NCBI GenBank assembly: GCA_000002435.2
Contig: CM018789.1
DNA: 64,000 nt
Reading direction: 5' to 3' (one strand)
Source of the DNA: Giardia intestinalis
Lineage: Eukaryota
Made by a program: the position numbers and the translations under genes. Below, one piece after another: positions 13,808 to 58,600 of this stretch. How positions within the stretch are numbered: the first letter of the stretch is position 1; each line of letters begins with the position of its first letter. Under the pieces are notes generated by a model. It was not told the DNA's origin and ran no database searches. It saw only the letters and a program-made list of their open reading frames with translations.

Positions 13808-15232
13808 ATGATGGGCTCCTTGGGGGCTGCTGAGCACTACGAGAAAGCCTGTACTGCCTACTCGCAGCGCGTTAACGACATTGTCCAGCTACTGAAGCGT
13901 CTGGATACCCTTCATAGTGATGGTTCCGCGGCATTTGATTCTAATAACCGCGATAGATACTTGACCTTCTATCGTGCGCAGGACTCCTTACTAGAAGCTA
14001 TGATTACAGACATATCGCCGATTGAAGGCGTCCCCACCTATCTTAAGCGCTTGCTCAAGAGCCTTGCAGAGTTGGTGGGGGCTCTCCGACTTCTAAACGG
14101 CTGCTGCGTCAGAGATCTAGAAGGCATTTTCGCGTGGATCGATGAACATAGCTTTGAGAAGGCGCAAGAACAGAGGGACTTCTTCAAGATGCAAGCTGAG
14201 GCTGCAGGGAGAAAGCTCGAAGAGGCCACTGCTCTCAACACCTCTCTCACAAAGGAGATGGAACAGCTTGTGTGTCGCTATGAGGCGCAGGCTCGACAGA
14301 AAGAGAATCAGGCGAGCAAGATGCTTGACGAGTACAAGAAGCTGTTCAGAGACATCGCAGGCAAAGCTTCAAGGTACGTAAAATCTGAGGAGCATGCTCT
14401 GCTGGGCCAAGAGGCAGTCTCAGATCATGAACTTCTTTCGACACAGATACAGATAGGCAGTAGAGCAATTGACACTTTGGATCCTGGACTGCCGATAAAT
14501 GATGAACTACTTGAATTCACGAGTCACACCGCTTCCAACTTGGTTGATCTTCTATTACGTTTAGTAGAGGCAGAAGGCAGACGTCACCCCTTGTCGGAGT
14601 CGGCAGAAGCTGAGATGATCAAGTACAGCGGTCCGGAGTCAGTAAGACTTGATGCCCTGGAAGCGCAGCAAGCTGCATTGTACAGACAGATCAATAGGCA
14701 AGATGAACGATTGGAAAGGTTTGATGCACAGAACCATCCCGTTCCCATGTCGATGCTCGACGAGTTGGCTAGGGATGCTTCAGAGCTAAAGGGAAAGTCA
14801 GCTGAGCAGACACAACACATCGCTGAACTATTGGGTATTCAGTATGAGTCGATTATACCAGTTGGTTACAGTCGCGAGCGCCCTCAATCTTCTCACAATA
14901 ATCCCTCAGACTGTCTAAAGGAAATAGTGGACTCTCTTATGTTTTCAACAGCGTGCATATGTAACTTGCATGCAGTGGTTGGCTATGGGATTGATTCATA
15001 TGCGATTATAGACACAGTAAAGGCGGAGTCCGATAGGAAGCGAAGAGTGTCCAGAAAAAGGAAAAGGATGGCAGGGACTGTCAGTGCAAGAGACATGATA
15101 TCTTCTGCGCTTGATGCCTCTGATCTTGGAGCTAAGAGCAATGTTGCAACAACACAAGAGGTTCCGTTGGGCGACTTGACGCCTAGTGGACAGCGAACAT
15201 ATACGGTTCGGGCGCAGCTAATGCAACTGTGA
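13808..15232 (+). CDS. Hypothetical coiled-coil protein (474 aa); 3' 1170 bp lie inside the left palindrome arm
   Basis: ATG start. From codon ~86 onward it is identical to the truncated copy at 29216-30394 (-). Confidence 0.6.
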   Translation: MMGSLGAAEHYEKACTAYSQRVNDIVQLLKRLDTLHSDGSAAFDSNNRDRYLTFYRAQDSLLEAMITDISPIEGVPTYLKRLLKSLAELVGALRLLNGCCVRDLEGIFAWIDEHSFEKAQEQRDFFKMQAEAAGRKLEEATALNTSLTKEMEQLVCRYEAQARQKENQASKMLDEYKKLFRDIAGKASRYVKSEEHALLGQEAVSDHELLSTQIQIGSRAIDTLDPGLPINDELLEFTSHTASNLVDLLLRLVEAEGRRHPLSESAEAEMIKYSGPESVRLDALEAQQAALYRQINRQDERLERFDAQNHPVPMSMLDELARDASELKGKSAEQTQHIAELLGIQYESIIPVGYSRERPQSSHNNPSDCLKEIVDSLMFSTACICNLHAVVGYGIDSYAIIDTVKAESDRKRRVSRKRKRMAGTVSARDMISSALDASDLGAKSNVATTQEVPLGDLTPSGQRTYTVRAQLMQL

Positions 15233-15294
15233 AATTCTTTGATGCATGGATGAGTGGGGACCAGGTATGTAGTTGACTGACGCTTTGCAAGTAG

Positions 15295-16197
15295 TCATAG
15301 AATATGCTCCAGTGCACGCGCAACGTAATATTTAATCAGCGAGATTATCGCATACGCTTGCCTGGCCATAAAGGCGAGCATGTGCTTGTCGGCTCGCCAC
15401 GCAATCAGAAATTCGAGCTTGCCATGCTCTACGTCCACTGTCCATGAGTGTATGGAGTGTAAAGGATGAAGCGCAAGTTTGTTGTGTGTTTCACGATCAT
15501 ATATATGTAGAGCCTTAGAATCTACCGCTAGAAAAACAGAGACAGGGTCGTTGGGAGAGAGATATGTAGCCTCAAAGAATTCCATCCTAGTGAGATCGAC
15601 GCTATCGATGAATTCTACGAAAAGTCTGTGAGTCTGCACTGTGGGATGTCCCCTGGCCTTGGCCCGAGAGAGAACCAGAACATCCCAATCTTTGGCTGTG
15701 CGCTTGCTTCGTATGCACGGATGGATGTAGCGTTCTATATTTTGTGCCACAACTCCCGGTGACAGTGGATCCTTGTCTAGTAAAAGACGCAAAGATGCAA
15801 ATTCAACGACATTATCTTCTGACGGGGGTATAGGCAGACGCATGTAGTCCTCGATACCCTGGGCCACGGCAAGAAAACTATAGGGAGAGTTTTCAGTGAC
15901 ACTTGGGTTTGTCGTGTGCTGGGGTAGCCTCCGAAGTAAGAAGGGAGAAAGCCCGTCTGGGATATTGACTTGTTGAAGGTATAGTTCCAGAGGACGGTCG
16001 CTGGTCTGAAGAATGCGCGCGCCTGTCTCTTCTCGGAGGAATAGAGATAGGTCTTGAGTATGGTCCTCCAGCCCCATTGCTTTGCATAGTGCTTTAATGG
16101 CCTCGATCGTTGTGGCTCCCAGAGTAAGGGAGACCTCTGTTTCTGCTCCTCCCGGAGCTTGTGCTCGTAAAGTGTGGGCAAAGCGTGCAAGATCCAT
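15295..16197 (-). CDS. Hypothetical 300-aa protein with possible FERM-like three-lobe organisation (left-arm copy)
   Basis: The track starts at TTG (16209); the first ATG gives MDLARFAHTL... The C-terminal 'FLAVDSKALHIYDRETHNKLALHPLHSIHSWTVDVEHGKLEFLI' resembles a FERM-C/PTB-like lobe and the N-terminus is ubiquitin-like. Identical to 28251-29153 (+). Confidence 0.5.
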   Translation of the reverse strand: MDLARFAHTLRAQAPGGAETEVSLTLGATTIEAIKALCKAMGLEDHTQDLSLFLREETGARILQTSDRPLELYLQQVNIPDGLSPFLLRRLPQHTTNPSVTENSPYSFLAVAQGIEDYMRLPIPPSEDNVVEFASLRLLLDKDPLSPGVVAQNIERYIHPCIRSKRTAKDWDVLVLSRAKARGHPTVQTHRLFVEFIDSVDLTRMEFFEATYLSPNDPVSVFLAVDSKALHIYDRETHNKLALHPLHSIHSWTVDVEHGKLEFLIAWRADKHMLAFMARQAYAIISLIKYYVARALEHIL

Positions 16198-18817
16198 TGA
16201 ATCAATCAACTCTTTTAAAGTTCATTGCCCCCGCTATGTTAACGACAATCCTCCGGTCATATCTACAGGTGTGTGAGTATCTTTGGGGCTGCAATGTCCG
16301 TCGTACTGCCTGGACGCAATGCTGAACCAGAGAGAGCTGCCATATGAATGTGCGTATATTGAGCTTAACAGAGTTAGGTTCGGCGCTATCGAGTTGTAAC
16401 ACGGTCTAGAACTACTCTATTCATAACTATGAATGCATTTCAGACAGAGCGAGGACCTATAGGTGCTATTCTCTGTGAGGATATCTGACAAATACAACTG
16501 TGATTGCTTTGGAGAAGCTGCTTATGTTAGTACTCTGGCACTTCTTCACGAAGTGCTTTGTTGACCTGCCATTAGGACGATGACTGTTCTTTGAAGCCTC
16601 TAACATGGGCCCTACGAACGTGCGTTCTTGTAGTTTCATCTCTTTATCTGGAGGCTACGTTCTCTAATGTCACGCTCTTATGGTGGCGGTAGGTCTTTGC
16701 AATCTATGGATTGAGTTACGATAAAACTTGTAATCTGTGTTTGAACTCGGAAAGCCACCGACATGTTAGAATAAGTTTAGACCATATTTACTGAATTGCT
16801 CCTTTTGCAATCAGGAGCTGCACTAGCTAAGGCTTTGCTTAACTTCTTTAGCACCTCGTAGTACAGCTGTTCAGCCCATTTGAGTTGGCACACCCTTCTG
16901 CTCAAGGTTGCAGAGGCCTACAGATTAGAATGCAGTGCTAACTGCCCCCTCAGCGTGGGCGTCTGATGGTATTTATGACACTGTATTCTATGACTCTCTA
17001 GAATTATCTGTGACACTTAGGCATATATATTTTGGTAATTCTGGCTTTTTGGCAGAGGGTTACGGAACTTAACCCTCGGGGATACCCTTTTACGGCATAT
17101 TTAAGGGTTCGTTCTATCTTCCACGGACTATTGAAACGTTGATCATAAGATCAGAGGAAAGCCACTATAAGGTGTCCTCGAGCTATCAGTCACAGCATGG
17201 AATAGGTAGCCCTTAAAGGTTACCATGCAATTCAGTGCCCTTTGAAAATCAGCACTAAGGCCTACTATATCAGCGATACTTAGAAGTATAGATAAGGCGC
17301 GCACACCCATGCAGATTGTGTATGTATAGCAGCGTGCATTGTGAGTTCATAGTGAAGCTATGATATGGGGCAGAACCCCGCTTAGACGATAAAGTCATTC
17401 GCGGTGCTTTACTTGGCACATTTACTCCGGTTCTGAGAAGCGTTATGAAAACACGGAGTCAGTGATGTGAACAAAGAGCGTGCAATGAACTGGGAATCAT
17501 CGAGGTTAATAGAATGGCGCGAAGCGAGTGTTATCTACCGCCCTGTTAGGCTACAGGTGTCGGTGTTCCTGGTTGTCAGTAGAGCTGCACAGATCCTACG
17601 ATTCCAAGAGCTGACCCCTCCCGAGAGCATTAGCAAGCGCTTATAGTGACGCGGAGTAGAGGCTGACCAATGCAAGTCGACGCACACTGTGCGACATAGA
17701 GGGGAGCGCCAAGCCGTAGCAGTAGGACTTTTACTGCGTGGTTTGCTGGCTCGCAACGCAGGAGATAACGTGTCTGTATCGACCAGTTTATCTGTTCAAG
17801 ATTGGGGACAGCTTAGACAGAGGTTGCAGACAGGAACTGGTTAGCTTGCTTGTCAGAAACTGGAGGCCTGATTTCTCCGCGTCCTACATGTGGGTTCAAA
17901 GAATGGTGGATCCGGAGACAGACACGCAAATGATAAAAAATGGCAACTCATTACAACCTCCCCGGGCGTCTGCTCCCACCTTTTGCAAGCATTTGTATGC
18001 TAGAGGAGCTTTAGTGCAGAGAATTCTGATGACGCAGGCAGCTTCTCGGTGGTTAGCATCCACGTAGAGAGTCCCGTCTCTTGAGACCTGCAGATTCAGT
18101 ACGCGCTTAGGAGTTACGGGTATGGATACTCTAAGACAGACGTGTCTATGGATGCAGCTGGGTACCAGTACTTGTCCCTGCATTAACCGTTGCCATGATT
18201 GGGTTGTGCAGCGTGTCCTGTCCGCTGACCCGAGATAGCACGTTTGGACAATGCCGCTTTCTATGCGGGCCTGGAAGAATTAAGCTTTTTGAAGTGTTGC
18301 CAGTCAACCCATCGCACAATGAGAGGCTGTACCAATAGCCTAGCGAAGCATCAGAAACAAGCCGTGCACGTTCCAGACCGGAGTGCCCAGCAAGCCAGTC
18401 TGTTGCTAGCATACACCTCCTACAGGCTTCTCGGTTGCCACAATCTCCTTTCGGAATCCTGCAAAGAACCGTTTCTGGGCTTATCCCGGATGCCGGGCTT
18501 TGAGTATGACCCGCGCAGGACCAGCAGCAGGCATAAAGCGTAGAGAATACCCAGGATGCCAGCTAATTCCACAGAGTAAGGGAGGTAGGCACAAAGGACA
18601 GCGCTGTTGTCTATTTCTGAAGTGTCTGTTCCCGCTGCACAGAGGGGTCGCAGAGTCTGTATTCGGCGGAGAAAGGGGCTACGCAAGGGACGCGTCTAAC
18701 GCTTGACGAAGTCATATTTCTCAACCAGAGACACATAAAAGGGTTTCCTTAGACTAGTCATCGTAGATACAACAACCAGATTCTTAGGCTTGGGTGCTTG
18801 AGATTATTAAGAAGATT

Positions 18818-18850
18818 CTTACCCGTATAAGTGAGCTGAGAAGGATTTTA
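18818..18850 (+). promoter_or_regulatory. Conserved VSP 5' proximal element 'cttacccgtataagtgagctgagaaggatttta' abutting the ATG
   Basis: Aligns with 'cttaccctataataagctgagggaaacttca' at 63131-63151 in front of the third VSP. Mirror copy at 25598-25630 (-). Confidence 0.5.
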
Positions 18851-20899
18851 ATGTTGCTTGCAATTTTCTACTTTGTGATAAGCACTCTTACAGCAAAGTG
18901 TACTACGCAGACACAAACTTGTGAAGCTGAGAAGTGCGAAATGGTTGGTGAAACAGAAATCTGTACACGGTGTCAAACAGGAAAAGTTCCAATTGATGGA
19001 AAGTGCGTAGATGCTACTGCTAATGCAAACTGCAAAAACGCTAGCGGTGATGGTGATGCAAACCAAGTCTGCGGAAAATGCATAGGAGCTAACTTTTTCA
19101 TGTATAAGGGCGGATGCTATGATAAAGAGAAGGTACCGGGAAATACTCTGTGCACAACTGTGTCACCAGATGGAGTATGCTCAGTAGCTGCGAATGAATA
19201 CTTTGTTCCACCAAATGCGGATGCTACTCATGATTCAGTCGTATCATGTTCTGAGGAAACCCCAATACATCTTGCTAATAACAAGCAGTACATAGGCGTA
19301 GCGGGATGTGCTACTTGCAGTGCTCCTAAGGCTCCTGGTGAAGACAACACCCCAAAGGCTGCTACGTGTACTAAGTGTGCAGCAGGATTTCTACATACTC
19401 CATCTGAAGGACTGAGTTCATGCGAAGAAACATGCCCAGAGGGATACTTCGGGCACACAGCTACTGCTGAAAGCAAGAAGACTTGCAAATCATGCACAGG
19501 CGGATCTAGCGAAGCACCGAATGTAAAGGGTATTGGAGACTGTCTGAAGTGCATGTACAATGAGGCTAGCGGCAATACCCTTACGTGCGAAAAATGCAGT
19601 GCACAAAAGAAGCCAAGTCTAGATAAAACAAGTTGTAATGATTGTACAGGTCAAAACTGCGCTTTCTGTAGTTCTAGTGGGGGAGACTGTGAGGGATGTG
19701 ACTCTGGTTTCATCTTGGATGGACAAAACTGTGTTAAGAGCGACTGCAAGACTGAGAACTGCAAGGCGTGCACCAATCCGAAGGCAGCAAACGAGGTCTG
19801 CACAGAGTGCATCTCCACTCACCATCTCACGCCGACAAGTCAATGTGTGCAGTACTGTCAAGCACTTGGAAACTACTATGCTGGCACTAATGCTGACAAC
19901 AAAAAGGCATGCAAGGAGTGCACTGTGGCTAACTGCAAAACTTGCAATGATCAGGGGCAGTGTCAAACATGCAACGACGGATTCTATAAAAACGGCGACG
20001 CATGCTCTCCGTGCCACGAAAGCTGCAAGACATGCAGCGCAGGCACTGCCAGCGACTGCACCGAGTGTCCCACTGGAAAAGCACTTAAGTATGGAAACGA
20101 CGGTACTAAGGGCACGTGTGGAGAAGGCTGCACAACAGGCCAAGGCAGCGGTGCCTGCAAAACGTGTGGGCTCACTATCGATGGTGCTAGCTACTGCTCT
20201 GAGTGTGATACACAAAATGAATATCCTCAAAATGGGATCTGTACTTCAACGACCGCTCGTACTGTGGCTACTTGTAAGAATAGCAACGTTGCCAATGGCA
20301 TATGTAGCTCATGTACCAATGGATTTCTTCGTATGAACGGAGGCTGCTATGAGACGACCAAGTTTCCGGGAAAGAGCGTCTGCGAAGGTGCAAACGCAGA
20401 CGCAGACACGTGCAAAGCACCTGTTCCAGGTTACAAAGTAGAGGCAGGAAAGCTTGTGATGTGCTCTAAGGGCTGTGACACGTGCAGCGACGCAACTACT
20501 TGTACAAAATGTGGAGATGGATACACAAAAATTGAAAACAGCCAAACATGCACAAAGTGTGATTCCAGCTGTGAAACATGTACTGGAGCAGCTACAACAT
20601 GTAAGGTGTGTGCTACAGGATACTACAAGACCGCATTGGGAGAAAGTACGTGCACATCCTGCGAAAATGATAGCAACGGAGTCATCGGTGTCAAGGGCTG
20701 CTTAAACTGCGCTCCTCCATCGTCTAGTACTGGCTCCGTTCTCTGCTACCTCATGAAAGGTGAGAATACTGGTGGAAGCGTCAACAAGAGCGGCCTTTCC
20801 ACTGGCGCCATCGCGGGGATCTCCGTCGCAGCCGTCGTCGTCGTGGCCGGCCTTGTGGGCTTCCTCTGCTGGTGGTTCATCTGCCGTGGAAAGGCGTAG
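18851..20899 (+). CDS. Variant-specific surface protein (VSP), left-arm copy
   Basis: Signal peptide [15 protein letters not shown]. Many CXXC and GGCY motifs. C-terminal TM helix followed by CRGKA. The track ORF begins at GTG 18794; the true start is the ATG at 18851, and the paralog at 63152 has a stop codon in the equivalent upstream frame. AGTAAAC at 20908-20914. Confidence 0.93.
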
Positions 20900-20907
20900 A
20901 CTTAGGT

Positions 20908-20914
20908 AGTAAAC
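20908..20914 (+). terminator. Giardia polyadenylation signal AGTAAAC, 9 nt after VSP stop (mirror copy on the minus strand at 23534-23540)
   Basis: Matches the AGTPuAAPy consensus known for Giardia mRNAs. Similar motifs at 3743-3749, 4328-4334, 10958-10964, 13286-13292, 45742-45748 and 53552-53558(-). Confidence 0.7.
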
Positions 20915-21368
20915 GCGTCACTGTATATGGCTTATTACGCTGTGCTGCTGGGGCTATCTGAGAGCGGTCCAGAGATCATGCGAGTGGGCCCGCTCCTTCC
21001 TGGCCAGTCTAAGGACGAGGGTTGAGTATGGATAACATAATGAAAGAGTCCTCTTCAGTGACACATCCAGAATCTGGGCATTCCTCGCCGCTCCATGAGG
21101 ATATGCTCTGTCTGGATGTCCATGCCGATCTGCCTTGGATTCAGGTCTTCTCGCAGACTCTCTGCTCTACCAGTGGCGCCTCTCCTTGGCCTGCCGTCTG
21201 GTGGGTGAAGCTCCAGTCGCCGTCTTTTTTAGATGCTCCCGTCTGACTCGGTGATTGCTGTCGGGCCCTCCGCTGGCTGGGCCCCTCGGTGTCCGGGCAG
21301 CTGTGGCCCGGGTCAGCGCTCCCACAGTCGCGGTCGCTTGGGTCCCAGCGGGTTCGGATGATGGGTGA

Positions 21369-23079
21369 GGCGGGGTATGGGGCGGTGAGGCTGGAGGGGA
21401 CCGGGGGGTGGTTGTATGTGCCCCTGGGTCTGATGGGCCATGTCGGGTGATCGCAGCTGTGGTGACTGGGGGCTGTCTATCTGTGACCCATCCCTCTGTG
21501 GACTCGTGAGTGCCCTCCGCCCAGGCAACCCTCAGGAGCCGTGCACGCTGGGACAGAGAGGGTGACCAAGGGAGTTAAGCAGCCCTGCCATGATGCTGAG
21601 GGTGCACAGCAGCCAGCCTGATCTGCAGGGCCTGCTCGAGCGATGGTAGTGGCAGACGACTCCCTCTGACAGCGACCCTGGTGACTGCACTGGCCTACTC
21701 TCGAAGCTGAGTGACAATGAACCAGACGGACCTGAGTGCAGGAGGACCGTCCACACACGAACAGACTGTGTAGACCCAGAGAGGACCGGAGTCTGCTCGG
21801 GACACGCTGACTGTGCCCCATACGAGAGCCCCAGGCAACCACCCGAGCACCCGAGAGGCAGCAACAGACACGGGCACCAGAGATTCCCAGCCAGACAGCT
21901 GCCATGCTCATCCACAGGGGCATCAGAGGACCAGGTGGAGTCACCCTCACAACCAGGGCCTAATAGGAAGCCAGAGGACTCACGCAGCACAGCAGAGCAG
22001 GCCCAAGGGAGGCACACTCCAGGCAGGTGAGCAGTGGCAGAGCCCTGACAGCTGCCAGCCCCCATGACACCCAGGCAGGCACCAGACTCGCTGGCCTCGA
22101 CTGCATTCACGATGACCTGAGGGGGCAGCAGCCAGAGGAGTGAGGAGACCTTCGGACACCACAAGAGGCCCGGCTGTCCAGCAGGCTATGGAGCACAGGT
22201 GACCTCTGAGCACCACAAAGGCACAGGAGCCGACCATCAGAGTGATGCCCGATCACAGAGACGACCACGAGCACCCTCCACCCACTCTGAGGGGCTGTCG
22301 ATCATTCCACTGCCTCTCATAGCAGACCTCCTTGAGGGCAGTGCAGTGAGTGACTCAGCTCATGCAGGAGGGTGCACGCCTCCCCTGGCATAGGATGCCG
22401 ACTCTCCCCGAGGGGTCATCAGAGCCACGAGGAGGGGTCAAGGTTAGTAGACCACACCGGGAACTCCCGAGGGCACAGCAGGTGATGTTGGGTGATCCTC
22501 AGCGTGCTCCTCTCTGATGGTAGAGCATCCTGAGACCAAGGGGGCTCACCCCTGCCTACGGACGACACACAGCGCTTCACAACGAGGACCCACCAGGAGC
22601 AGCACAGCTGACCACGGGGACAGTGCAGTCACCGATGCCCCACCGTGTTAGTCTTTTGAGTCATCACACTAGAGGCATGAGAGAACCCATCCCATCCACA
22701 GGCTCATCCACACCCCTGCTGGTCCCAGGTGAACTCCCCGTCGAGGCACCGGACAGGGCATGCCAGGGGCTCAGCAGACCCGCACAGAGCAACAGCGAGT
22801 AGCAGGAGGGGCTGCGATGGCCTGCCTCGACACTCACGCACCAGCCAGACAGAGCAGCAGTACTGCCTGAGGCATGCAGGGGCCAAGGGAGGCACTCAGT
22901 CAGGGGGACACGACACGATCGTCGGTGCCTGTGTCTCGGGAGTGCAACGAGGGCTGGAGAGCAGACACAACCACCTTGGCAAACAGAGCGGGGATCACCC
23001 CAATGACCCACCGAACCCAGAGGCACATACGAACACCACCAACCTCAGCCCCCACCAGAGCCCCACCAGCCTCACCGCC
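21369..23079. repeat. Palindrome spacer: strongly strand-asymmetric, T-depleted (+ strand) low-complexity region with degenerate internal repeats
   Basis: From ~21530 to 23200 the + strand is roughly 8-12% T (by eye). By contrast 21250-21530 is A-poor and loosely resembles the reverse complement of the right end. Recurring degenerate units occur: 'cccaggcaacc' at ~21521 and ~21825, 'caagggaggcac' at ~22005 and ~22885, 'gaccaaggg..ccctgcc' at ~21575 and ~22525. Confidence 0.75.
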
Positions 23080-23548
23080 CCACCCATCATCCGAACCCGC
23101 TGGGACCCAAGCGACCGCGACTGTGGGAGCGCTGACCCGGGCCACAGCTGCCCGGACACCGAGGGGCCCAGCCAGCGGAGGGCCCGACAGCAATCACCGA
23201 GTCAGACGGGAGCATCTAAAAAAGACGGCGACTGGAGCTTCACCCACCAGACGGCAGGCCAAGGAGAGGCGCCACTGGTAGAGCAGAGAGTCTGCGAGAA
23301 GACCTGAATCCAAGGCAGATCGGCATGGACATCCAGACAGAGCATATCCTCATGGAGCGGCGAGGAATGCCCAGATTCTGGATGTGTCACTGAAGAGGAC
23401 TCTTTCATTATGTTATCCATACTCAACCCTCGTCCTTAGACTGGCCAGGAAGGAGCGGGCCCACTCGCATGATCTCTGGACCGCTCTCAGATAGCCCCAG
23501 CAGCACAGCGTAATAAGCCATATACAGTGACGCGTTTACTACCTAAGT

Positions 23549-25597
23549 CTACGCCTTTCCACGGCAGATGAACCACCAGCAGAGGAAGCCCACAAGGCCG
23601 GCCACGACGACGACGGCTGCGACGGAGATCCCCGCGATGGCGCCAGTGGAAAGGCCGCTCTTGTTGACGCTTCCACCAGTATTCTCACCTTTCATGAGGT
23701 AGCAGAGAACGGAGCCAGTACTAGACGATGGAGGAGCGCAGTTTAAGCAGCCCTTGACACCGATGACTCCGTTGCTATCATTTTCGCAGGATGTGCACGT
23801 ACTTTCTCCCAATGCGGTCTTGTAGTATCCTGTAGCACACACCTTACATGTTGTAGCTGCTCCAGTACATGTTTCACAGCTGGAATCACACTTTGTGCAT
23901 GTTTGGCTGTTTTCAATTTTTGTGTATCCATCTCCACATTTTGTACAAGTAGTTGCGTCGCTGCACGTGTCACAGCCCTTAGAGCACATCACAAGCTTTC
24001 CTGCCTCTACTTTGTAACCTGGAACAGGTGCTTTGCACGTGTCTGCGTCTGCGTTTGCACCTTCGCAGACGCTCTTTCCCGGAAACTTGGTCGTCTCATA
24101 GCAGCCTCCGTTCATACGAAGAAATCCATTGGTACATGAGCTACATATGCCATTGGCAACGTTGCTATTCTTACAAGTAGCCACAGTACGAGCGGTCGTT
24201 GAAGTACAGATCCCATTTTGAGGATATTCATTTTGTGTATCACACTCAGAGCAGTAGCTAGCACCATCGATAGTGAGCCCACACGTTTTGCAGGCACCGC
24301 TGCCTTGGCCTGTTGTGCAGCCTTCTCCACACGTGCCCTTAGTACCGTCGTTTCCATACTTAAGTGCTTTTCCAGTGGGACACTCGGTGCAGTCGCTGGC
24401 AGTGCCTGCGCTGCATGTCTTGCAGCTTTCGTGGCACGGAGAGCATGCGTCGCCGTTTTTATAGAATCCGTCGTTGCATGTTTGACACTGCCCCTGATCA
24501 TTGCAAGTTTTGCAGTTAGCCACAGTGCACTCCTTGCATGCCTTTTTGTTGTCAGCATTAGTGCCAGCATAGTAGTTTCCAAGTGCTTGACAGTACTGCA
24601 CACATTGACTTGTCGGCGTGAGATGGTGAGTGGAGATGCACTCTGTGCAGACCTCGTTTGCTGCCTTCGGATTGGTGCACGCCTTGCAGTTCTCAGTCTT
24701 GCAGTCGCTCTTAACACAGTTTTGTCCATCCAAGATGAAACCAGAGTCACATCCCTCACAGTCTCCCCCACTAGAACTACAGAAAGCGCAGTTTTGACCT
24801 GTACAATCATTACAACTTGTTTTATCTAGACTTGGCTTCTTTTGTGCACTGCATTTTTCGCACGTAAGGGTATTGCCGCTAGCCTCATTGTACATGCACT
24901 TCAGACAGTCTCCAATACCCTTTACATTCGGTGCTTCGCTAGATCCGCCTGTGCATGATTTGCAAGTCTTCTTGCTTTCAGCAGTAGCTGTGTGCCCGAA
25001 GTATCCCTCTGGGCATGTTTCTTCGCATGAACTCAGTCCTTCAGATGGAGTATGTAGAAATCCTGCTGCACACTTAGTACACGTAGCAGCCTTTGGGGTG
25101 TTGTCTTCACCAGGAGCCTTAGGAGCACTGCAAGTAGCACATCCCGCTACGCCTATGTACTGCTTGTTATTAGCAAGATGTATTGGGGTTTCCTCAGAAC
25201 ATGATACGACTGAATCATGAGTAGCATCCGCATTTGGTGGAACAAAGTATTCATTCGCAGCTACTGAGCATACTCCATCTGGTGACACAGTTGTGCACAG
25301 AGTATTTCCCGGTACCTTCTCTTTATCATAGCATCCGCCCTTATACATGAAAAAGTTAGCTCCTATGCATTTTCCGCAGACTTGGTTTGCATCACCATCA
25401 CCGCTAGCGTTTTTGCAGTTTGCATTAGCAGTAGCATCTACGCACTTTCCATCAATTGGAACTTTTCCTGTTTGACACCGTGTACAGATTTCTGTTTCAC
25501 CAACCATTTCGCACTTCTCAGCTTCACAAGTTTGTGTCTGCGTAGTACACTTTGCTGTAAGAGTGCTTATCACAAAGTAGAAAATTGCAAGCAACAT
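23549..25597 (-). CDS. Variant-specific surface protein (VSP), right-arm copy, identical to 18851-20899
   Basis: Mirror image of the left copy (coordinates sum to 44448) with identical 682/701-aa translation. Tail-to-tail with the left copy. Polyadenylation motif on the minus strand at 23534-23540. Confidence 0.93.
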
Positions 25598-28250
25598 TAA
25601 AATCCTTCTCAGCTCACTTATACGGGTAAGAATCTTCTTAATAATCTCAAGCACCCAAGCCTAAGAATCTGGTTGTTGTATCTACGATGACTAGTCTAAG
25701 GAAACCCTTTTATGTGTCTCTGGTTGAGAAATATGACTTCGTCAAGCGTTAGACGCGTCCCTTGCGTAGCCCCTTTCTCCGCCGAATACAGACTCTGCGA
25801 CCCCTCTGTGCAGCGGGAACAGACACTTCAGAAATAGACAACAGCGCTGTCCTTTGTGCCTACCTCCCTTACTCTGTGGAATTAGCTGGCATCCTGGGTA
25901 TTCTCTACGCTTTATGCCTGCTGCTGGTCCTGCGCGGGTCATACTCAAAGCCCGGCATCCGGGATAAGCCCAGAAACGGTTCTTTGCAGGATTCCGAAAG
26001 GAGATTGTGGCAACCGAGAAGCCTGTAGGAGGTGTATGCTAGCAACAGACTGGCTTGCTGGGCACTCCGGTCTGGAACGTGCACGGCTTGTTTCTGATGC
26101 TTCGCTAGGCTATTGGTACAGCCTCTCATTGTGCGATGGGTTGACTGGCAACACTTCAAAAAGCTTAATTCTTCCAGGCCCGCATAGAAAGCGGCATTGT
26201 CCAAACGTGCTATCTCGGGTCAGCGGACAGGACACGCTGCACAACCCAATCATGGCAACGGTTAATGCAGGGACAAGTACTGGTACCCAGCTGCATCCAT
26301 AGACACGTCTGTCTTAGAGTATCCATACCCGTAACTCCTAAGCGCGTACTGAATCTGCAGGTCTCAAGAGACGGGACTCTCTACGTGGATGCTAACCACC
26401 GAGAAGCTGCCTGCGTCATCAGAATTCTCTGCACTAAAGCTCCTCTAGCATACAAATGCTTGCAAAAGGTGGGAGCAGACGCCCGGGGAGGTTGTAATGA
26501 GTTGCCATTTTTTATCATTTGCGTGTCTGTCTCCGGATCCACCATTCTTTGAACCCACATGTAGGACGCGGAGAAATCAGGCCTCCAGTTTCTGACAAGC
26601 AAGCTAACCAGTTCCTGTCTGCAACCTCTGTCTAAGCTGTCCCCAATCTTGAACAGATAAACTGGTCGATACAGACACGTTATCTCCTGCGTTGCGAGCC
26701 AGCAAACCACGCAGTAAAAGTCCTACTGCTACGGCTTGGCGCTCCCCTCTATGTCGCACAGTGTGCGTCGACTTGCATTGGTCAGCCTCTACTCCGCGTC
26801 ACTATAAGCGCTTGCTAATGCTCTCGGGAGGGGTCAGCTCTTGGAATCGTAGGATCTGTGCAGCTCTACTGACAACCAGGAACACCGACACCTGTAGCCT
26901 AACAGGGCGGTAGATAACACTCGCTTCGCGCCATTCTATTAACCTCGATGATTCCCAGTTCATTGCACGCTCTTTGTTCACATCACTGACTCCGTGTTTT
27001 CATAACGCTTCTCAGAACCGGAGTAAATGTGCCAAGTAAAGCACCGCGAATGACTTTATCGTCTAAGCGGGGTTCTGCCCCATATCATAGCTTCACTATG
27101 AACTCACAATGCACGCTGCTATACATACACAATCTGCATGGGTGTGCGCGCCTTATCTATACTTCTAAGTATCGCTGATATAGTAGGCCTTAGTGCTGAT
27201 TTTCAAAGGGCACTGAATTGCATGGTAACCTTTAAGGGCTACCTATTCCATGCTGTGACTGATAGCTCGAGGACACCTTATAGTGGCTTTCCTCTGATCT
27301 TATGATCAACGTTTCAATAGTCCGTGGAAGATAGAACGAACCCTTAAATATGCCGTAAAAGGGTATCCCCGAGGGTTAAGTTCCGTAACCCTCTGCCAAA
27401 AAGCCAGAATTACCAAAATATATATGCCTAAGTGTCACAGATAATTCTAGAGAGTCATAGAATACAGTGTCATAAATACCATCAGACGCCCACGCTGAGG
27501 GGGCAGTTAGCACTGCATTCTAATCTGTAGGCCTCTGCAACCTTGAGCAGAAGGGTGTGCCAACTCAAATGGGCTGAACAGCTGTACTACGAGGTGCTAA
27601 AGAAGTTAAGCAAAGCCTTAGCTAGTGCAGCTCCTGATTGCAAAAGGAGCAATTCAGTAAATATGGTCTAAACTTATTCTAACATGTCGGTGGCTTTCCG
27701 AGTTCAAACACAGATTACAAGTTTTATCGTAACTCAATCCATAGATTGCAAAGACCTACCGCCACCATAAGAGCGTGACATTAGAGAACGTAGCCTCCAG
27801 ATAAAGAGATGAAACTACAAGAACGCACGTTCGTAGGGCCCATGTTAGAGGCTTCAAAGAACAGTCATCGTCCTAATGGCAGGTCAACAAAGCACTTCGT
27901 GAAGAAGTGCCAGAGTACTAACATAAGCAGCTTCTCCAAAGCAATCACAGTTGTATTTGTCAGATATCCTCACAGAGAATAGCACCTATAGGTCCTCGCT
28001 CTGTCTGAAATGCATTCATAGTTATGAATAGAGTAGTTCTAGACCGTGTTACAACTCGATAGCGCCGAACCTAACTCTGTTAAGCTCAATATACGCACAT
28101 TCATATGGCAGCTCTCTCTGGTTCAGCATTGCGTCCAGGCAGTACGACGGACATTGCAGCCCCAAAGATACTCACACACCTGTAGATATGACCGGAGGAT
28201 TGTCGTTAACATAGCGGGGGCAATGAACTTTAAAAGAGTTGATTGATTCA

Positions 28251-29153
28251 ATGGATCTTGCACGCTTTGCCCACACTTTACGAGCACAAGCTCCGGGAGG
28301 AGCAGAAACAGAGGTCTCCCTTACTCTGGGAGCCACAACGATCGAGGCCATTAAAGCACTATGCAAAGCAATGGGGCTGGAGGACCATACTCAAGACCTA
28401 TCTCTATTCCTCCGAGAAGAGACAGGCGCGCGCATTCTTCAGACCAGCGACCGTCCTCTGGAACTATACCTTCAACAAGTCAATATCCCAGACGGGCTTT
28501 CTCCCTTCTTACTTCGGAGGCTACCCCAGCACACGACAAACCCAAGTGTCACTGAAAACTCTCCCTATAGTTTTCTTGCCGTGGCCCAGGGTATCGAGGA
28601 CTACATGCGTCTGCCTATACCCCCGTCAGAAGATAATGTCGTTGAATTTGCATCTTTGCGTCTTTTACTAGACAAGGATCCACTGTCACCGGGAGTTGTG
28701 GCACAAAATATAGAACGCTACATCCATCCGTGCATACGAAGCAAGCGCACAGCCAAAGATTGGGATGTTCTGGTTCTCTCTCGGGCCAAGGCCAGGGGAC
28801 ATCCCACAGTGCAGACTCACAGACTTTTCGTAGAATTCATCGATAGCGTCGATCTCACTAGGATGGAATTCTTTGAGGCTACATATCTCTCTCCCAACGA
28901 CCCTGTCTCTGTTTTTCTAGCGGTAGATTCTAAGGCTCTACATATATATGATCGTGAAACACACAACAAACTTGCGCTTCATCCTTTACACTCCATACAC
29001 TCATGGACAGTGGACGTAGAGCATGGCAAGCTCGAATTTCTGATTGCGTGGCGAGCCGACAAGCACATGCTCGCCTTTATGGCCAGGCAAGCGTATGCGA
29101 TAATCTCGCTGATTAAATATTACGTTGCGCGTGCACTGGAGCATATTCTATGA
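28251..29153 (+). CDS. Right-arm copy of the 300-aa FERM-like hypothetical protein
   Basis: Identical translation to 15295-16197 (-). Confidence 0.5.
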   Translation: MDLARFAHTLRAQAPGGAETEVSLTLGATTIEAIKALCKAMGLEDHTQDLSLFLREETGARILQTSDRPLELYLQQVNIPDGLSPFLLRRLPQHTTNPSVTENSPYSFLAVAQGIEDYMRLPIPPSEDNVVEFASLRLLLDKDPLSPGVVAQNIERYIHPCIRSKRTAKDWDVLVLSRAKARGHPTVQTHRLFVEFIDSVDLTRMEFFEATYLSPNDPVSVFLAVDSKALHIYDRETHNKLALHPLHSIHSWTVDVEHGKLEFLIAWRADKHMLAFMARQAYAIISLIKYYVARALEHIL

Positions 29154-29215
29154 CTACTTGCAAAGCGTCAGTCAACTACATACCTGGTCCCCACTCATCC
29201 ATGCATCAAAGAATT

Positions 29216-30394
29216 TCACAGTTGCATTAGCTGCGCCCGAACCGTATATGTTCGCTGTCCACTAGGCGTCAAGTCGCCCAACGGAACCTCTTGTGTTGTT
29301 GCAACATTGCTCTTAGCTCCAAGATCAGAGGCATCAAGCGCAGAAGATATCATGTCTCTTGCACTGACAGTCCCTGCCATCCTTTTCCTTTTTCTGGACA
29401 CTCTTCGCTTCCTATCGGACTCCGCCTTTACTGTGTCTATAATCGCATATGAATCAATCCCATAGCCAACCACTGCATGCAAGTTACATATGCACGCTGT
29501 TGAAAACATAAGAGAGTCCACTATTTCCTTTAGACAGTCTGAGGGATTATTGTGAGAAGATTGAGGGCGCTCGCGACTGTAACCAACTGGTATAATCGAC
29601 TCATACTGAATACCCAATAGTTCAGCGATGTGTTGTGTCTGCTCAGCTGACTTTCCCTTTAGCTCTGAAGCATCCCTAGCCAACTCGTCGAGCATCGACA
29701 TGGGAACGGGATGGTTCTGTGCATCAAACCTTTCCAATCGTTCATCTTGCCTATTGATCTGTCTGTACAATGCAGCTTGCTGCGCTTCCAGGGCATCAAG
29801 TCTTACTGACTCCGGACCGCTGTACTTGATCATCTCAGCTTCTGCCGACTCCGACAAGGGGTGACGTCTGCCTTCTGCCTCTACTAAACGTAATAGAAGA
29901 TCAACCAAGTTGGAAGCGGTGTGACTCGTGAATTCAAGTAGTTCATCATTTATCGGCAGTCCAGGATCCAAAGTGTCAATTGCTCTACTGCCTATCTGTA
30001 TCTGTGTCGAAAGAAGTTCATGATCTGAGACTGCCTCTTGGCCCAGCAGAGCATGCTCCTCAGATTTTACGTACCTTGAAGCTTTGCCTGCGATGTCTCT
30101 GAACAGCTTCTTGTACTCGTCAAGCATCTTGCTCGCCTGATTCTCTTTCTGTCGAGCCTGCGCCTCATAGCGACACACAAGCTGTTCCATCTCCTTTGTG
30201 AGAGAGGTGTTGAGAGCAGTGGCCTCTTCGAGCTTTCTCCCTGCAGCCTCAGCTTGCATCTTGAAGAAGTCCCTCTGTTCTTGCGCCTTCTCAAAGCTAT
30301 GTTCATCGATCCACGCGAAAATGCCTTCTAGATCTCTGACGCAGCAGCCGTTTAGAAGTCGGAGAGCCCCCACCAACTCTGCAAATGCCCACAT
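29216..30394 (-). pseudogene. 5'-truncated duplicate of the 474-aa coiled-coil gene (lacks first ~85 codons; fortuitous ATG 'MWAFAEL' at the repeat junction)
   Basis: Translation is identical to residues ~87-474 of 13808-15232. The palindrome boundary (~30383) cuts the gene. The new N-terminus MWAF is encoded by unique flanking sequence. Confidence 0.5.
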
Positions 30395-55164: not shown

Positions 55165-55280
55165 TTCTGGAAATAAATTATTGGCGTCATTTTGAGCTCT
55201 GACTGGGCCTACATCCCGGAGATTGTAGTCTAGCAGTGACTGAGCATACTATTCTGGAAGGAATCTTTAGCTAAAGTAAA

Positions 55281-55649
55281 ATGATGAGTTTAGAAGGAGA
55301 AAAAGCCGAGGTGCAGGCTCTCCTGAAGCGGCTAGGGGAGCGCCGTACACACATTGTGAAAGCAGCAGAAAACATAGACCGGCTTCTGGCTCAGGTAAGT
55401 GCTTCAGAAAGTGATCAACGGCTGTTCACAGCACTCCAGGACGCCCATGCGTCCACTCCTGTATCTCTCTCACCCAAGGCGTTACTTCGACTTGAGGCTC
55501 TCAAAAAGAGGCTTTTTCTGGCGCAAACGCGGGAAGCAGATATACGTGAACAACTCGACCTCGTTTTTGGTGATTGCACAGAAACATTGTTGGATCTTCA
55601 ACTAATCATTGATGAGACGAAAGAACTGAGGACGGAGATTGGCAAGTGA
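55281..55649 (+). CDS. Small coiled-coil hypothetical protein (122 aa)
   Basis: ATG start with an AT-rich initiator-like upstream sequence ('ctaaagtaaaATG'). Helical, heptad-like sequence. Confidence 0.4.
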   Translation: MMSLEGEKAEVQALLKRLGERRTHIVKAAENIDRLLAQVSASESDQRLFTALQDAHASTPVSLSPKALLRLEALKKRLFLAQTREADIREQLDLVFGDCTETLLDLQLIIDETKELRTEIGK

Positions 55650-58600
55650 ATGCTCGTCTGGTCTTCCACATAGGACTGTGTCAGAAGCTCACGCATGTCT
55701 TCACAGCTCTTCAGTCCGTCGCCTACTCTCGGTAAGTACATAATAGCGTAATGTGAGTAATATCTGGACGTTTCACAAACTTATACGCAACTGTGTACGT
55801 CTCACTTTTGATACATGAAATCGATATATTAATATACTTTACAACTCAGGGCATTTACCAAGACATTCTGTCCCGTTCCAGATAAAGCAGCATCGCCCGC
55901 TGAGCTAAGTATTCAGATCGCTATTGTAGCGCTCCCTGCATCCTTCCCTTGCAGAATGCCAGTAGCTGAGCGGGAACGTGTCTGCGAGAATAGCGAGCAC
56001 CAAGGAGCAGGTGCATATGGCGTACGTGGCTGAGGCGAGTGTTGCTCTGCTACCCAACGCTCGACATGTACACTTTCGACTCGCTAAGCGATGCAGACAA
56101 AGATGCCAGCTTGGCCCGCAGTAGTTCTCCGATCCTTCTGCCCAGTGGCCTCTCCGATGAGCAACAGCCAACTGGAGAGTCGTCAATCGCTGGGACGCCC
56201 AGACCGCACAGTGGCCGCTCAAGAGGTGCAAGGGCTGCACACACCGCTGTGGATGGTGCGCTCTGTCAACGGCTCTCCACGCTGAGCTGGCCCTTAGCTG
56301 CTACTCTGTGGCCTCCGATGGGACGGGCATTATGAAGAGGTTTACTTGGAGAACCCCTGACATTGCGACGCCTATCCTGAGAAGACAATGCTATCTCACA
56401 TAAGCTACTTCCACTACTCATTCCCACTGATCCAGATAACCCATCTTGCATGCTTCGGATTGCCCTCTCTTGCCAGCAGAGCAGCCACCACCCTGTGTGT
56501 CTCCTTCAGACACAGTTTCGTCTATGACGGCACCTTTTGTCTCTTCTCTGGAGAGGCATAACCGTCCCAATCCAGACACCTTGCTCTCAGCACACACCTC
56601 GTATCCAGCAGAGGCCAGGTGCTCGTCGACCATATCCCATGAGTATCAGCGCTGTGCCACTATGTTGCTTCCTGTCCTTCTTGAGGGGCGTGCTCTGACC
56701 ATCTCAGTGTCTCTATGATAGGAGAGATGTGGATCCGGAGGTGGTTGTTGCTTTCTGGCACCCCTCTGCTGACCAGAAGAGTGCAAGAGCGCCCTTCGGG
56801 AGTCGGTCCCCTAATTTTCTGTTCTCTCGGGGAAGTGGTCCTTGGATAGCGCCACTCGGAGGACTCCCAAAGCGTCACTGTATGGGCGCTGCTTTACAAA
56901 CACTCCTGGCTGAAGCTGGACCCGAATCCTCCTAAAGCAACTTTATAGAGTTACCTGGTGGCCCATTCCTTGACTACTATCAGCAGAGGTCTCAACCTCC
57001 CAAGGACATCTCGGGGATAGTACGTTTGGCCCACGTCAGCGCCACTTCCTGGCAGAGGCATGCGGAGGATCTGCTCCCTCTTGTGGATCCATCATTAGTA
57101 TCGAGAGCACTGCGTCTGTTACCTTCGTTGGAGGTGTCGAGAGATGGTGCCCCGTATCTATCCCATTGAAGAGTTGGAGGTCCGCCAGGACAGCGAAGAT
57201 GATCCCATCAGGGCTGTGATCATATACCCGTCATTATGGCAACCATAGTGTAGATAAGACAACTGTCTGGGCCCCGCAACTCCCGGCGTAGGACGCCAGG
57301 AGGCTTGGCTGGGTCAGGCTAGTGAGGGCTACCCCTGTCATAACAGGCTTAGAAAATAGGGAGCGAGTGACGTACCTGGTGTCCACCAATGCACGCATGC
57401 AGCCTGGAAGCTGTGCTCAAAGCACCGAGGCCTGCAGGGGTGTGGCATCCGAACAGGCCCGACAGTTATGACTGCTTCTGAGAACAGCCAGCATGACTGG
57501 ACGAGGACATGAAAGCTCATGGAGGCCCTCACAGTCTTGATGTCTGGGAGAACACGGGGACTGACCACTCCAAGATTGTCCATCTCATGAGCTGGCTTTC
57601 GATAGCAGGCATAACAAGGAAGTGACCCCCAGTCATACACAATCTCATGCGATTCCATCGCAGCCTAGAGCATCCTTATCTGGCCTGCCAGTCCATCCAT
57701 GACGGTAGCAGATGTGTCAGCATTCCAGATCATCGGCCACCGCAGCTGCACAGTCGGGGTACTGCCTATGGTATTGCTCACTGATACTTTACATGGAGCC
57801 CTGTCCCTGTGGTAGTGACAGGTGAACTTCTCTGCAGATGCAGATCTAATGATATGGTTCCTCTTGGGCATTCTACTCCTACTTCTGTCTGGTCTCTCAC
57901 CTCAATGCGAGTGGCCAGCGGCTGTTACTGGGTCTTGCAGCATAACTATTACACATTTGTGTGCTAATCAAGACTACCATATAGGGTCACACAAGCCGGG
58001 AGCTCTGTCAGGCAATTATCGGACTCGATATCAAGATGGCACGGGGACAACACTCCCAGTGGTCACCGGGGACATGAATCATCATACAAGCCGCATAGTG
58101 CACCAGAAGCAGCACAACGGTGAAGAGCATGCCTGGATGTAGATGGCGCCTACAGCAAGCGGCATGCTGTCGTTGTCGGTACAACGGGCATAGTGGCTAC
58201 TGGACCCACGCTTTGGTAGCCTCGATTGGAGCAATTGTACAGCGAAGGAGCAGGGCGTAGGGACATGGGCACCAACCGGTCGAGCAGCGTGTACATGTAT
58301 GAGCACGGTTATAAGTCTCGCCTACACTGTTGGGTGGTGCTCTGCCTCGATGTGGACTCAGCGGGTTGGCTCTTATATCAGTGGCAGATGGCAGAACACC
58401 ACGCTGGTCATGTGGTGAGAGGTCTTCATGCGGTCTTCCAACTATTCTAAGTCACGCTGGAAAGCAGCTAGCCCTCCCGCACCACGTCTCCTCTCCAAAT
58501 AGGACTGAAGGCGCCCAGGGCGCTCTTCTAGGGCCTTAGTATCATGGAGCCCGTGCCAGGCAGGAGAGTTCTATGTTGCATGGCGTGAGAGTCTCTAGGG

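Follow-up and report, generated by a model that had tools for sequence, protein, structure and literature searches.

The inverted pairs formed by identical VSP genes have carried the label 'interesting but cryptic' from 2010 onward, and they raise the question of how such twins arise in Giardia intestinalis and how they stay identical. We addressed this question in a 64,000-nucleotide stretch of chromosome 1 of WB clone C6 (hereafter the window), which holds the identical convergent VSP pair GL50803_00d115797/00115797, with an interval of 2649 bp between the two genes and no coding signal inside it. The pair is the one given in Table 2 of Xu 2020 (PMC7000408) as d115797/115797 of chromosome 1, 682 aa long and 2649 bp apart, and in the same paper 12 of 12 convergent WB pairs lie 2526–2813 bp apart with no gene between them. 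In Adam 2010 (PMC2996952) the VSP of this pair is vsp54, alias 417-2 or TSP11, and nine tail-to-tail pairs diverge 318–559 nt past the stop codon.

Our best overall explanation, which we hold with moderate confidence, is that the DNA between the two genes contains a ~2.4-kb spacer module, one copy of a conserved and non-coding kind that is located 3' of Giardia VSP genes and would seed recombination and stabilise the resulting palindrome. The module consists of two old inverted arms of ~0.45 kb, whose inward ends are G-rich and prone to insertions and deletions (indels), and a unique polar core of ~1.45 kb between them. These old inverted ends are probably what gives rise to the identical inverted twins and keeps them stable. 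That the spacer recurs was already known; its composition, its arm architecture and the proposed two-step origin are new.

A palindrome around a recurring spacer

The VSP pair lies in a palindrome with arms that are 100% identical over 7304 nt, after which identity drops sharply to below 80% at 21367/23081 and a unique spacer begins. A base-by-base check places this spacer at 21368–23080 (1713 nt, geometric axis 22224), in line with the coordinates given in a preliminary description of the locus. A repeat search tolerating one mismatch gave arms of 7310 nt ending at 21373/23075, and the exact limits are 21367/23081. The genes and arms are as follows.

14064 to 21367, no strand assigned: left perfect palindrome arm, 7304 nt, the source copy; limits by base-by-base complementarity.
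18851 to 20899, plus strand: left VSP gene, GL50803_00d115797/00115797 (VSP 417-2/TSP11), 682 aa, ending in CRGKA*; Pfam VSP, E = 1.7e-204.
20908 to 20913, plus strand: AGTAAA poly(A) signal of the left VSP gene, by motif scan; mirror copy at 23535 to 23540, minus strand.
23081 to 30384, no strand assigned: right perfect palindrome arm, the derived copy; the same base-by-base limits.
23549 to 25597, minus strand: right VSP gene, an identical inverted copy that mirrors the left gene within the perfect arms.

Three proteins encoded in the window are identical to WB entries at NCBI. The exact protein of the left gene is recorded there as WB 'VSP with INR', and the supplement of the Rodriguez-Walker preprint gives the motif GACTTAGGTAGTAAACGCGT for this gene (10.1101/2022.03.07.483299). 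Between the two VSP genes, the motif scan found only the two listed AGTAAA signals, each 9 nt past its stop codon.

The spacer module extends beyond the 1713-nt spacer into both perfect arms, and has the following parts.

21014 to 21505, plus strand: left old inverted arm; outer limit from homology to a metagenome copy (L002, below), inner limit set by aligning it locally to the right side.
21150 to 21350, plus strand: conserved arm block (mirror 23098 to 23298), with 84–88% mean pairwise identity among 5 copies.
21350 to 21450, plus strand: G-rich, indel-prone hypervariable segment (mirror 22998 to 23098, C-rich on the plus strand); G = 49–54%.
21506 to 22939, plus strand: unique polar core, T-poor, nearly without A/T runs, CpG-poor and non-coding; the most conserved part of the family.
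22940 to 23434, plus strand: right old inverted arm; from local alignment and repeat comparison with the left side.

The outer two thirds of the left old arm are overwritten by the perfect arm, and its inner part (21368–21505) is diverged. As had been noticed before, the two sides of the spacer can be aligned with many small indels as far as ~21505/22940 (68.5% identity over all columns, 78.5% ungapped) and are unrelated beyond, and the 11-nt AGGCGGGGTAT at 21368–21378 is found on the left side only. This indel, the end of the perfect arm and G4-type motifs (matches at 21340–21382 and 23078–23108) all fall in the hypervariable segment, where pairwise identity is 43–69%, and Tandem Repeats Finder (TRF) reports a threefold array of the 9-nt AGCCCCACC at 23059–23084. 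The G-rich tracts lie on the sense strand of each VSP, 450–550 nt past the stop codon, and G-richness on the sense strand is confined to 21300–21450 and its mirror copy.

Eight further loci (L001–L004 and L006–L009) were recovered from seven ENA metagenome assemblies, with translated open reading frames (ORFs) of the spacer serving as search handles only. Seven of the eight overlap the core, and the remaining one, L009, covers only a VSP, its 3' flank and part of an arm. The BLAST identity of the copies to window positions 20703–23689 is 81% to 89%, and three distinct copies (L002, L003 and L006) come from one sample. Among the copies, mean pairwise identity is 81–96% in the core (21450–22984) and 56–73% in the VSP-proximal flank (20950–21150), and the T content of the core is 12.4–14.7% in every copy. 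Wherever a flank is readable, the copy adjoins the 3' terminus of a VSP or Cys-rich gene, and the unit can face either way with respect to that neighbouring VSP. A core 26-mer and an arm 23-mer, both conserved and each scanned as an exact pattern over JGI metagenome contigs, gave no matches.

For the WB genome itself, similarity to other pairs is taken from the literature only. According to the Rodriguez-Walker preprint, the VSP1267 pair has an identical intergenic region and six others have a very similar one, and four pairs form a second similarity group (10.1101/2022.03.07.483299). The spacer belongs with group '*5' of its S4 table, the spacers of tail-to-tail identical VSP pairs, in that it lies between identical convergent VSPs at the usual distance, has no gene inside it and resembles the spacers of other VSP loci. 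Since recurrence between other VSP pairs is already published, the spacer is to be recast as a family-specific element, and the initial view that no described Giardia element matches it is outdated: Xu 2020 lists the pair and the Rodriguez-Walker preprint notes the recurring intergenic region.

The age of the arms and of the palindrome

The most informative copy is L002, in which the order is VSP tail, arm (513–896), core, inverted arm (2583–2974, 86% identical to the first), a convergent MEC-17-like gene and then, in tandem orientation, a further VSP-like gene. Inverted arms are thus present at a locus that has no second VSP in inverted orientation. In the window, the inner arm parts are 68.5% identical to each other, whereas same-side segments of different copies are 80–89% identical, and the two arms being less alike than the same-side segments indicates that the arms predate the divergence of the copies. 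As old arms are present without a VSP palindrome, and as the perfect arms start inside them, the 7.3-kb perfect arms are best read as a later extension from a crossover within the old arms. Uniform decay of a single duplication cannot give rise to the step in identity from 100% to below 80% at 21367, within the G-rich segment. The locus had been suggested to be a recombination or fold-back scar; the link to recombination and the palindrome is supported, but a simple fold-back scar does not account for old inverted arms at a locus such as L002, where no VSP palindrome is present.

The outer ends of the perfect arms point to a direction of copying. The left arm ends inside the intact 474-aa gene GL50803_00111809 (13808–15232, plus strand), and the right arm ends in a truncated 392-aa copy of it, GL50803_0061606 (29216–30394, minus strand), which takes its ATG from the flank and is annotated as a separate gene. 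The gene is intact on the left and truncated on the right, so copying ran from left to right. GL50803_0061606 may thus be a by-product of the duplication and possibly no real gene. No homology was found at the outer junction, and L005, an independent Logan assembly, matches the window there at 100% identity, which rules out an assembly artefact.

Published breakpoints agree with this arrangement. The old-arm span covers +115 to +606 nt past the stop codon and the window pair diverges at +468; all divergence points of Adam 2010 (318–559 nt) fall within this span, as a model in which the arms seed the duplication predicts, and the agreement is indirect in that it is with the published positions. 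In L002, a 77-nt block of 100% identity sits within arms that are otherwise 77–88% identical. This block and the identity step would both fit arm-to-arm conversion, and a single recent duplication would explain the window equally well.

A bounded unit with inverted ends could also be a non-autonomous DNA transposon, with the 0.45-kb arms as terminal inverted repeats and the copies made by transposition. Terminal inverted repeats are indeed present in L002 (513–896 against 2974–2583, 86% over 392 columns), several copies occur per genome, and both orientations relative to the neighbouring VSP are seen. However, there is no target-site duplication at the L002 ends, a six-frame Pfam search revealed no transposase relic, and all readable flanks are the 3' ends of VSP or Cys-rich genes, not unrelated sites. 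We know of no DNA transposon established in Giardia, and give this origin very little credence.

Some copies show further irregularities. L009 (1–1567) is a metagenome copy of the VSP studied here, 94.5% identical overall to window positions 19760–21327; on visual inspection no change is apparent over ~240 nt from the stop codon onward, and the differences cluster inward from ~21140, a pattern that suggests a recombination mosaic with its boundary in the outer arm. L006 carries a module in which the final ~460 nt of the core are missing, as is the inner part of the distal arm (L006 191–480 against L002 2737–3029). Its distal flank is homologous to that of L002 for ~55 nt past the end of the inverted repeat, which means that the true end of the module is beyond the repeat or else that a segmental duplication is common to both loci. 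The idea that perfect palindromes in the metagenome genomes could be deduced from contig ends was dropped because the ends of L003 are not inverted repeats of each other.

Composition and content of the core

The plus strand of the spacer is poor in T, at 12.3% in 21530–23200 and 13.7% in 21369–23079 compared with 24.6% window-wide. In windows of 1.5 kb, T reaches a minimum of 11.7% here, the lowest value of any base in the 64 kb, whereas elsewhere no base on either strand is below 17.7%. The depletion is real and exceeds local variation by far, but to call the tract almost devoid of T, as was done at first, overstates a two-fold effect in which the longest T-free run is 62 nt. The A-poor left edge (21250–21530; A = 9.6%, G = 41%) and a composition switch at ~21500–21530, away from the geometric axis at 22224, were correctly described. 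The switch is off-axis because the T-poor tract is a single polar unit, core plus right old arm, that runs from ~21506 to ~23300. The A-poor piece at ~21100–21505 is an inverted copy of the right end of this unit, which makes the asymmetry structural, with no need of a different sequence type. Throughout the family, A is in two-fold excess over T on one strand, and this trait is conserved.

A second property of the core is a scarcity of A/T runs. It holds 3 runs of at least 4 nt, the longest being 5 nt, where same-composition shuffles give 18.6 +/- 3.6, and the density is 2.1 per kb compared with ~25 per kb elsewhere in the window. All 8 core copies contain 0–3 such runs; for the other non-coding DNA of the window, among it an 8-kb gene-free tract and the region upstream of the VSP, the figure is 15–32 per kb. 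T-poorness and scarcity of A/T runs thus go together in all 8 copies and are absent from the other non-coding DNA of the window. Among core dinucleotides, the ratio of observed to expected is 0.30 for AA, 0.38 for TA, 0.55 for TT and 0.40 for CG, and 1.4–1.6 for CA, TG, AG and CT.

The CpG ratio in 21501–22500 (0.37–0.41) is the lowest in the window (median 0.79), with CA and TG in excess, and such depletion is odd for Giardia. CpG hypermutability as a sign of cytosine methylation was considered and set aside, given that CpG transitions are only 1.7-fold more frequent than those at other C/G sites (p = 0.04), which is too weak.

Degenerate direct repeats of a few-hundred-bp unit, part of the original picture of the spacer, were not recovered by any method. 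TRF returned two micro-arrays only, of 16 and 26 nt, a repeat search within the spacer gave matches of 12–24 nt only, blastn at word size 7 against the window found nothing beyond the spacer itself and the inverted arms, and gapped and ungapped self-alignment scores were inside or just above the range of shuffles. A peak of base autocorrelation at lag 406 in 21531–22984 (0.323 against 0.271 expected, ~4 standard deviations) has no alignable repeat beneath it and may be a weak compositional periodicity.

The mutational record of the core allows two readings. Derived changes from G or C to A or T (S to W) create A/T dinucleotides in 66% of cases against 78% expected (p = 0.005, from five sequences only), and this under-creation hints at constraint. 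Per-site rates are 0.109 for C>T and 0.139 for T>C, which predict a rising T content. T-poorness is accordingly either selected or an ancestral state in slow decay.

No evidence of coding was found. The longest open frame has 217 codons compared with 188 +/- 43 in same-composition shuffles (p = 0.22), which agrees with the first impression that the long ORFs are a product of composition. Between the core and its homologous copies, only 4 of 77 indels have a length divisible by 3, and substitutions show no preference among the codon positions. A six-frame Pfam search of the spacer produced no family at E <= 1 apart from one chance match below the cut-off, and tblastn with the VSP and all window ORFs detected no similarity of the spacer to any of them. 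Together, ORF length, codon positions, indels, Pfam and tblastn rule out a protein-coding gene or pseudogene. A relic of a non-long-terminal-repeat retrotransposon of the GilM/GilT/GilD type was rejected on its protein-domain and tail features, since the six frames contain no reverse transcriptase domain and there is no A-rich tail. For a 74-aa ORF in the arm, a search returned only the L009 allele, and frame-breaking indels among the arms count against coding.

These results bear on the possibility that the core is a functionless relic, namely a decayed gene or mobile element beside an ancestral VSP that was carried along as VSP loci multiplied and whose composition is inherited. This would agree with the lack of any ORF, domain or RNA family signal, with derived changes that are mostly S to W and a T/C ratio well away from mutational equilibrium, a pattern expected if an ancestral state is decaying, and with the transposon relics that the Rodriguez-Walker preprint reports around VSP pairs. 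However, none of the six frames retains a trace of reverse transcriptase, transposase or VSP, and the core is 81–96% identical among copies where the outer arm parts and 3' flank reach 56–73%. Extreme avoidance of A/T runs in 8 of 8 copies, together with new mutations that under-create A/T dinucleotides, also speaks against mere inheritance, and the near-constant spacing of 2.5–2.8 kb in 12 pairs suggests that both length and content have been retained. We therefore consider a relic unlikely, though worth keeping in mind.

Could the core instead encode a long non-coding RNA or a small-RNA precursor that regulates VSP expression? Its high conservation would allow this, small RNAs and antisense RNA in VSP control are known from the literature, and an arm block folds stably (z = -3.8). 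The core itself behaves differently, with folding z-scores that scatter around 0 on both strands. An Rfam search gave nothing at E <= 1 except two chance, below-threshold matches in the arms, and of the Argonaute-bound small RNAs tabulated by Saraiya 2014, the 42 sequences compared (those listed as snoRNA-derived or as intergenic/unannotated) all failed to map to the spacer within 6 mismatches. The core also lacks AT-rich patches for Giardia transcription initiation and tolerates frequent 1-nt indels. A structured non-coding RNA was rejected because the core has neither an Rfam match nor excess folding stability, and Girep RNAs, which are tandem repeats of 222–228 nt, are unlike the spacer. 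The non-coding RNA put forward in the preliminary description thus finds no support, and a regulatory RNA gene of this kind is in our view improbable.

An R-loop-forming terminator tract over the whole spacer, likewise put forward in the preliminary description, has even less in its favour. R-loop-prone DNA usually has a G-rich non-template strand. The region is GC-rich (62%), lies between convergent genes and has G-rich tracts on the VSP sense strands, but the GC skew of the core is only -0.15 to +0.1, that is, around 0, and the asymmetry is one of A over T, not G over C. A label of purine plus C is a fair description of the tract, although it should not be taken to mean a GC skew in the core, and without such skew the whole-spacer model is not favoured. 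Moreover, with poly(A) signals 9 nt past the stop codons, most transcripts should end far short of the core. Only at the inner ends of the arms, where 100 nt are G-rich, are R-loops plausible, and a tract spanning the whole spacer is highly improbable.

Two observations concern the conserved part of the arms. T6 at 21225–21230, with its mirror A6 at 23218–23223, is the only A/T run of at least 6 nt in the 2.25-kb AT-poor module and sits in the conserved block; most homologous arms retain it, as T6 in the L002 distal arm, L004 and L009 but only as T4 in the L002 proximal arm. The A-rich strand faces back towards each VSP, so that in Giardia antisense VSP RNA could start at this run, or sense-strand transcription could stop there. 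The stable fold (z = -3.8 relative to shuffles) lies at 21040–21340 (plus strand; mirror 23108–23408, minus strand), 140–440 nt past the VSP stop codon and outside the reported spacer, encloses the conserved block at 21150–21350, and is a property of the VSP-sense strand, with the opposite strand at ~0. Four homologous arms share the structure, with 6 compensatory pairs (from 4 sequences only), and it may be a cis-RNA element in VSP read-through transcripts.

Elsewhere in the window, the 8 kb at 55200–63200 contain no ORF longer than 130 aa and lie upstream of another VSP (~63200–64000), which runs off the window end. Positions 60308–63322 are 72.5% identical to the VSP upstream region in L006 (3449–6457), which indicates that long VSP upstream regions also form a conserved non-coding family. 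The upstream region at 60308–63322 is unrelated to that of VSP 115797.

Proposed mechanism and related systems

We infer the function of the module from its architecture and its conservation, and propose the following course of events. The old arms would offer inverted homology, and template switching, break-induced replication or gene conversion would begin in the old right arm with the old left arm as template. Copying would then run outward for 7.3 kb, through the VSP and its upstream genes and in inverted orientation, and would end in a non-homologous join, with the crossover at 21367/23081 within the G-rich tract. Later exchange between the arms would keep the VSP twins identical. In other systems, large palindromes need an interruption for stability, and the unique core would keep this one interrupted and hence stable.

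With lower confidence, the core might also act as an initiation-free buffer between the convergent VSPs that would limit antisense transcription into both. Giardia initiates transcription promiscuously and bidirectionally at loosely defined AT-rich patches (PMC1885649), and a core almost without such patches would not be expected to fire antisense transcripts into the VSP genes. The G-rich ends of the arms could stall read-through transcription or replication forks, and fork stalling would fit the position of the crossover. An extended version can be formulated as a selected cis-module that keeps VSPs as identical convergent twins, in which the arms would drive inverted duplication and continual conversion, a nucleosome-favourable core would be an initiation-free insulator, and the A6/T6 run and hairpin would mark a start or processing site of antisense VSP RNA, so that the palindrome would be tied to RNA-based epigenetic antigenic variation. 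Taken as a whole, this version is speculative and we think it distinctly unlikely.

Several points weigh against a recombination-seeding, palindrome-stabilising module. The distal arm of L002 could be the relic of an older VSP palindrome that has lost one gene, in which case palindromes came first and arms second. Gene conversion between copies, and not selection, could have kept the core more conserved than its flanks, and T-poorness may be an inherited, slowly decaying trait that is not maintained. The evidence for a buffer or terminator role is the composition, and neither proposed role predicts the strand polarity. Finally, recurrence within WB is taken from a preprint statement, and the metagenome copies are assigned to Giardia only via their flanking VSP genes and their similarity to the locus.

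If the module acts as proposed, a shared spacer with old arms gives the cryptic VSP pairs a concrete, testable mechanism, which would explain both the 2.5–2.8 kb spacing of convergent pairs and their divergence 0.3–0.6 kb past the stop codon. In a genome that initiates transcription at almost any AT-rich patch, a conserved 1.45-kb core nearly without A/T runs is a plausible transcription-silent buffer, and it offers an experimental handle on antisense RNA and VSP switching. The modules also mark short-read assembly breaks and expected structural variants. Among published structural variants, the 'inverted duplication' calls of Pollo 2020 have an average size of 2.3–2.7 kb.

The closest known counterparts are the published VSP-pair spacers, one of which is that of the pair studied here; the recurrence had been noted there already, as had the sudden loss of identity within a few hundred nt of the stop codon. 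In those papers the spacer goes by the names 'non-coding DNA' or 'VSP like region' and its sequence is not analysed, and the latter label is not borne out at the sequence level. Polar T depletion, scarcity of A/T runs, CpG depletion and old arms without a second VSP are not described in the Adam, Xu and Rodriguez-Walker papers, and neither are the breakpoints inside the old arms or the higher conservation of the core.

Pause-type termination elements of RNA polymerase II, reportedly studied by Skourti-Stathaki in 2011, are G-rich and are said to involve R-loops downstream of poly(A) sites. The present locus resembles them in that each VSP poly(A) signal is followed, some hundreds of nt further on, by a tract that is G-rich on the sense strand. 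In contrast, only ~100 nt per side are G-rich here and the large core has no GC skew.

For inverted-repeat-mediated palindromic duplication, two models are reportedly available, the yeast 'nearby inverted repeats fuse' model (Mizuno, 2009) and origin-dependent inverted-repeat amplification (ODIRA; Brewer, 2011). Both share with the window inverted repeats around a spacer of 1–2 kb, an inner junction in repeat homology, an outer junction without homology and, as the product, an inverted duplication of flanking DNA. Their products are dicentric or acentric chromosomes or inverted triplications, whereas the duplication here is interstitial and stable, and a replication origin in the spacer is only hypothetical.

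The primate Y-chromosome palindromes P1–P8 have long arms of ~100% identity, a sharp boundary to a unique spacer and genes of multigene families in the arms, all of which are found here too. They differ in size, at 10 kb to more than 1 Mb compared with 7 kb, and ongoing conversion in the Giardia palindrome is inferred. A further difference is that in Giardia many palindromes share one spacer family, and this family has inverted arms of its own that are older and diverged.

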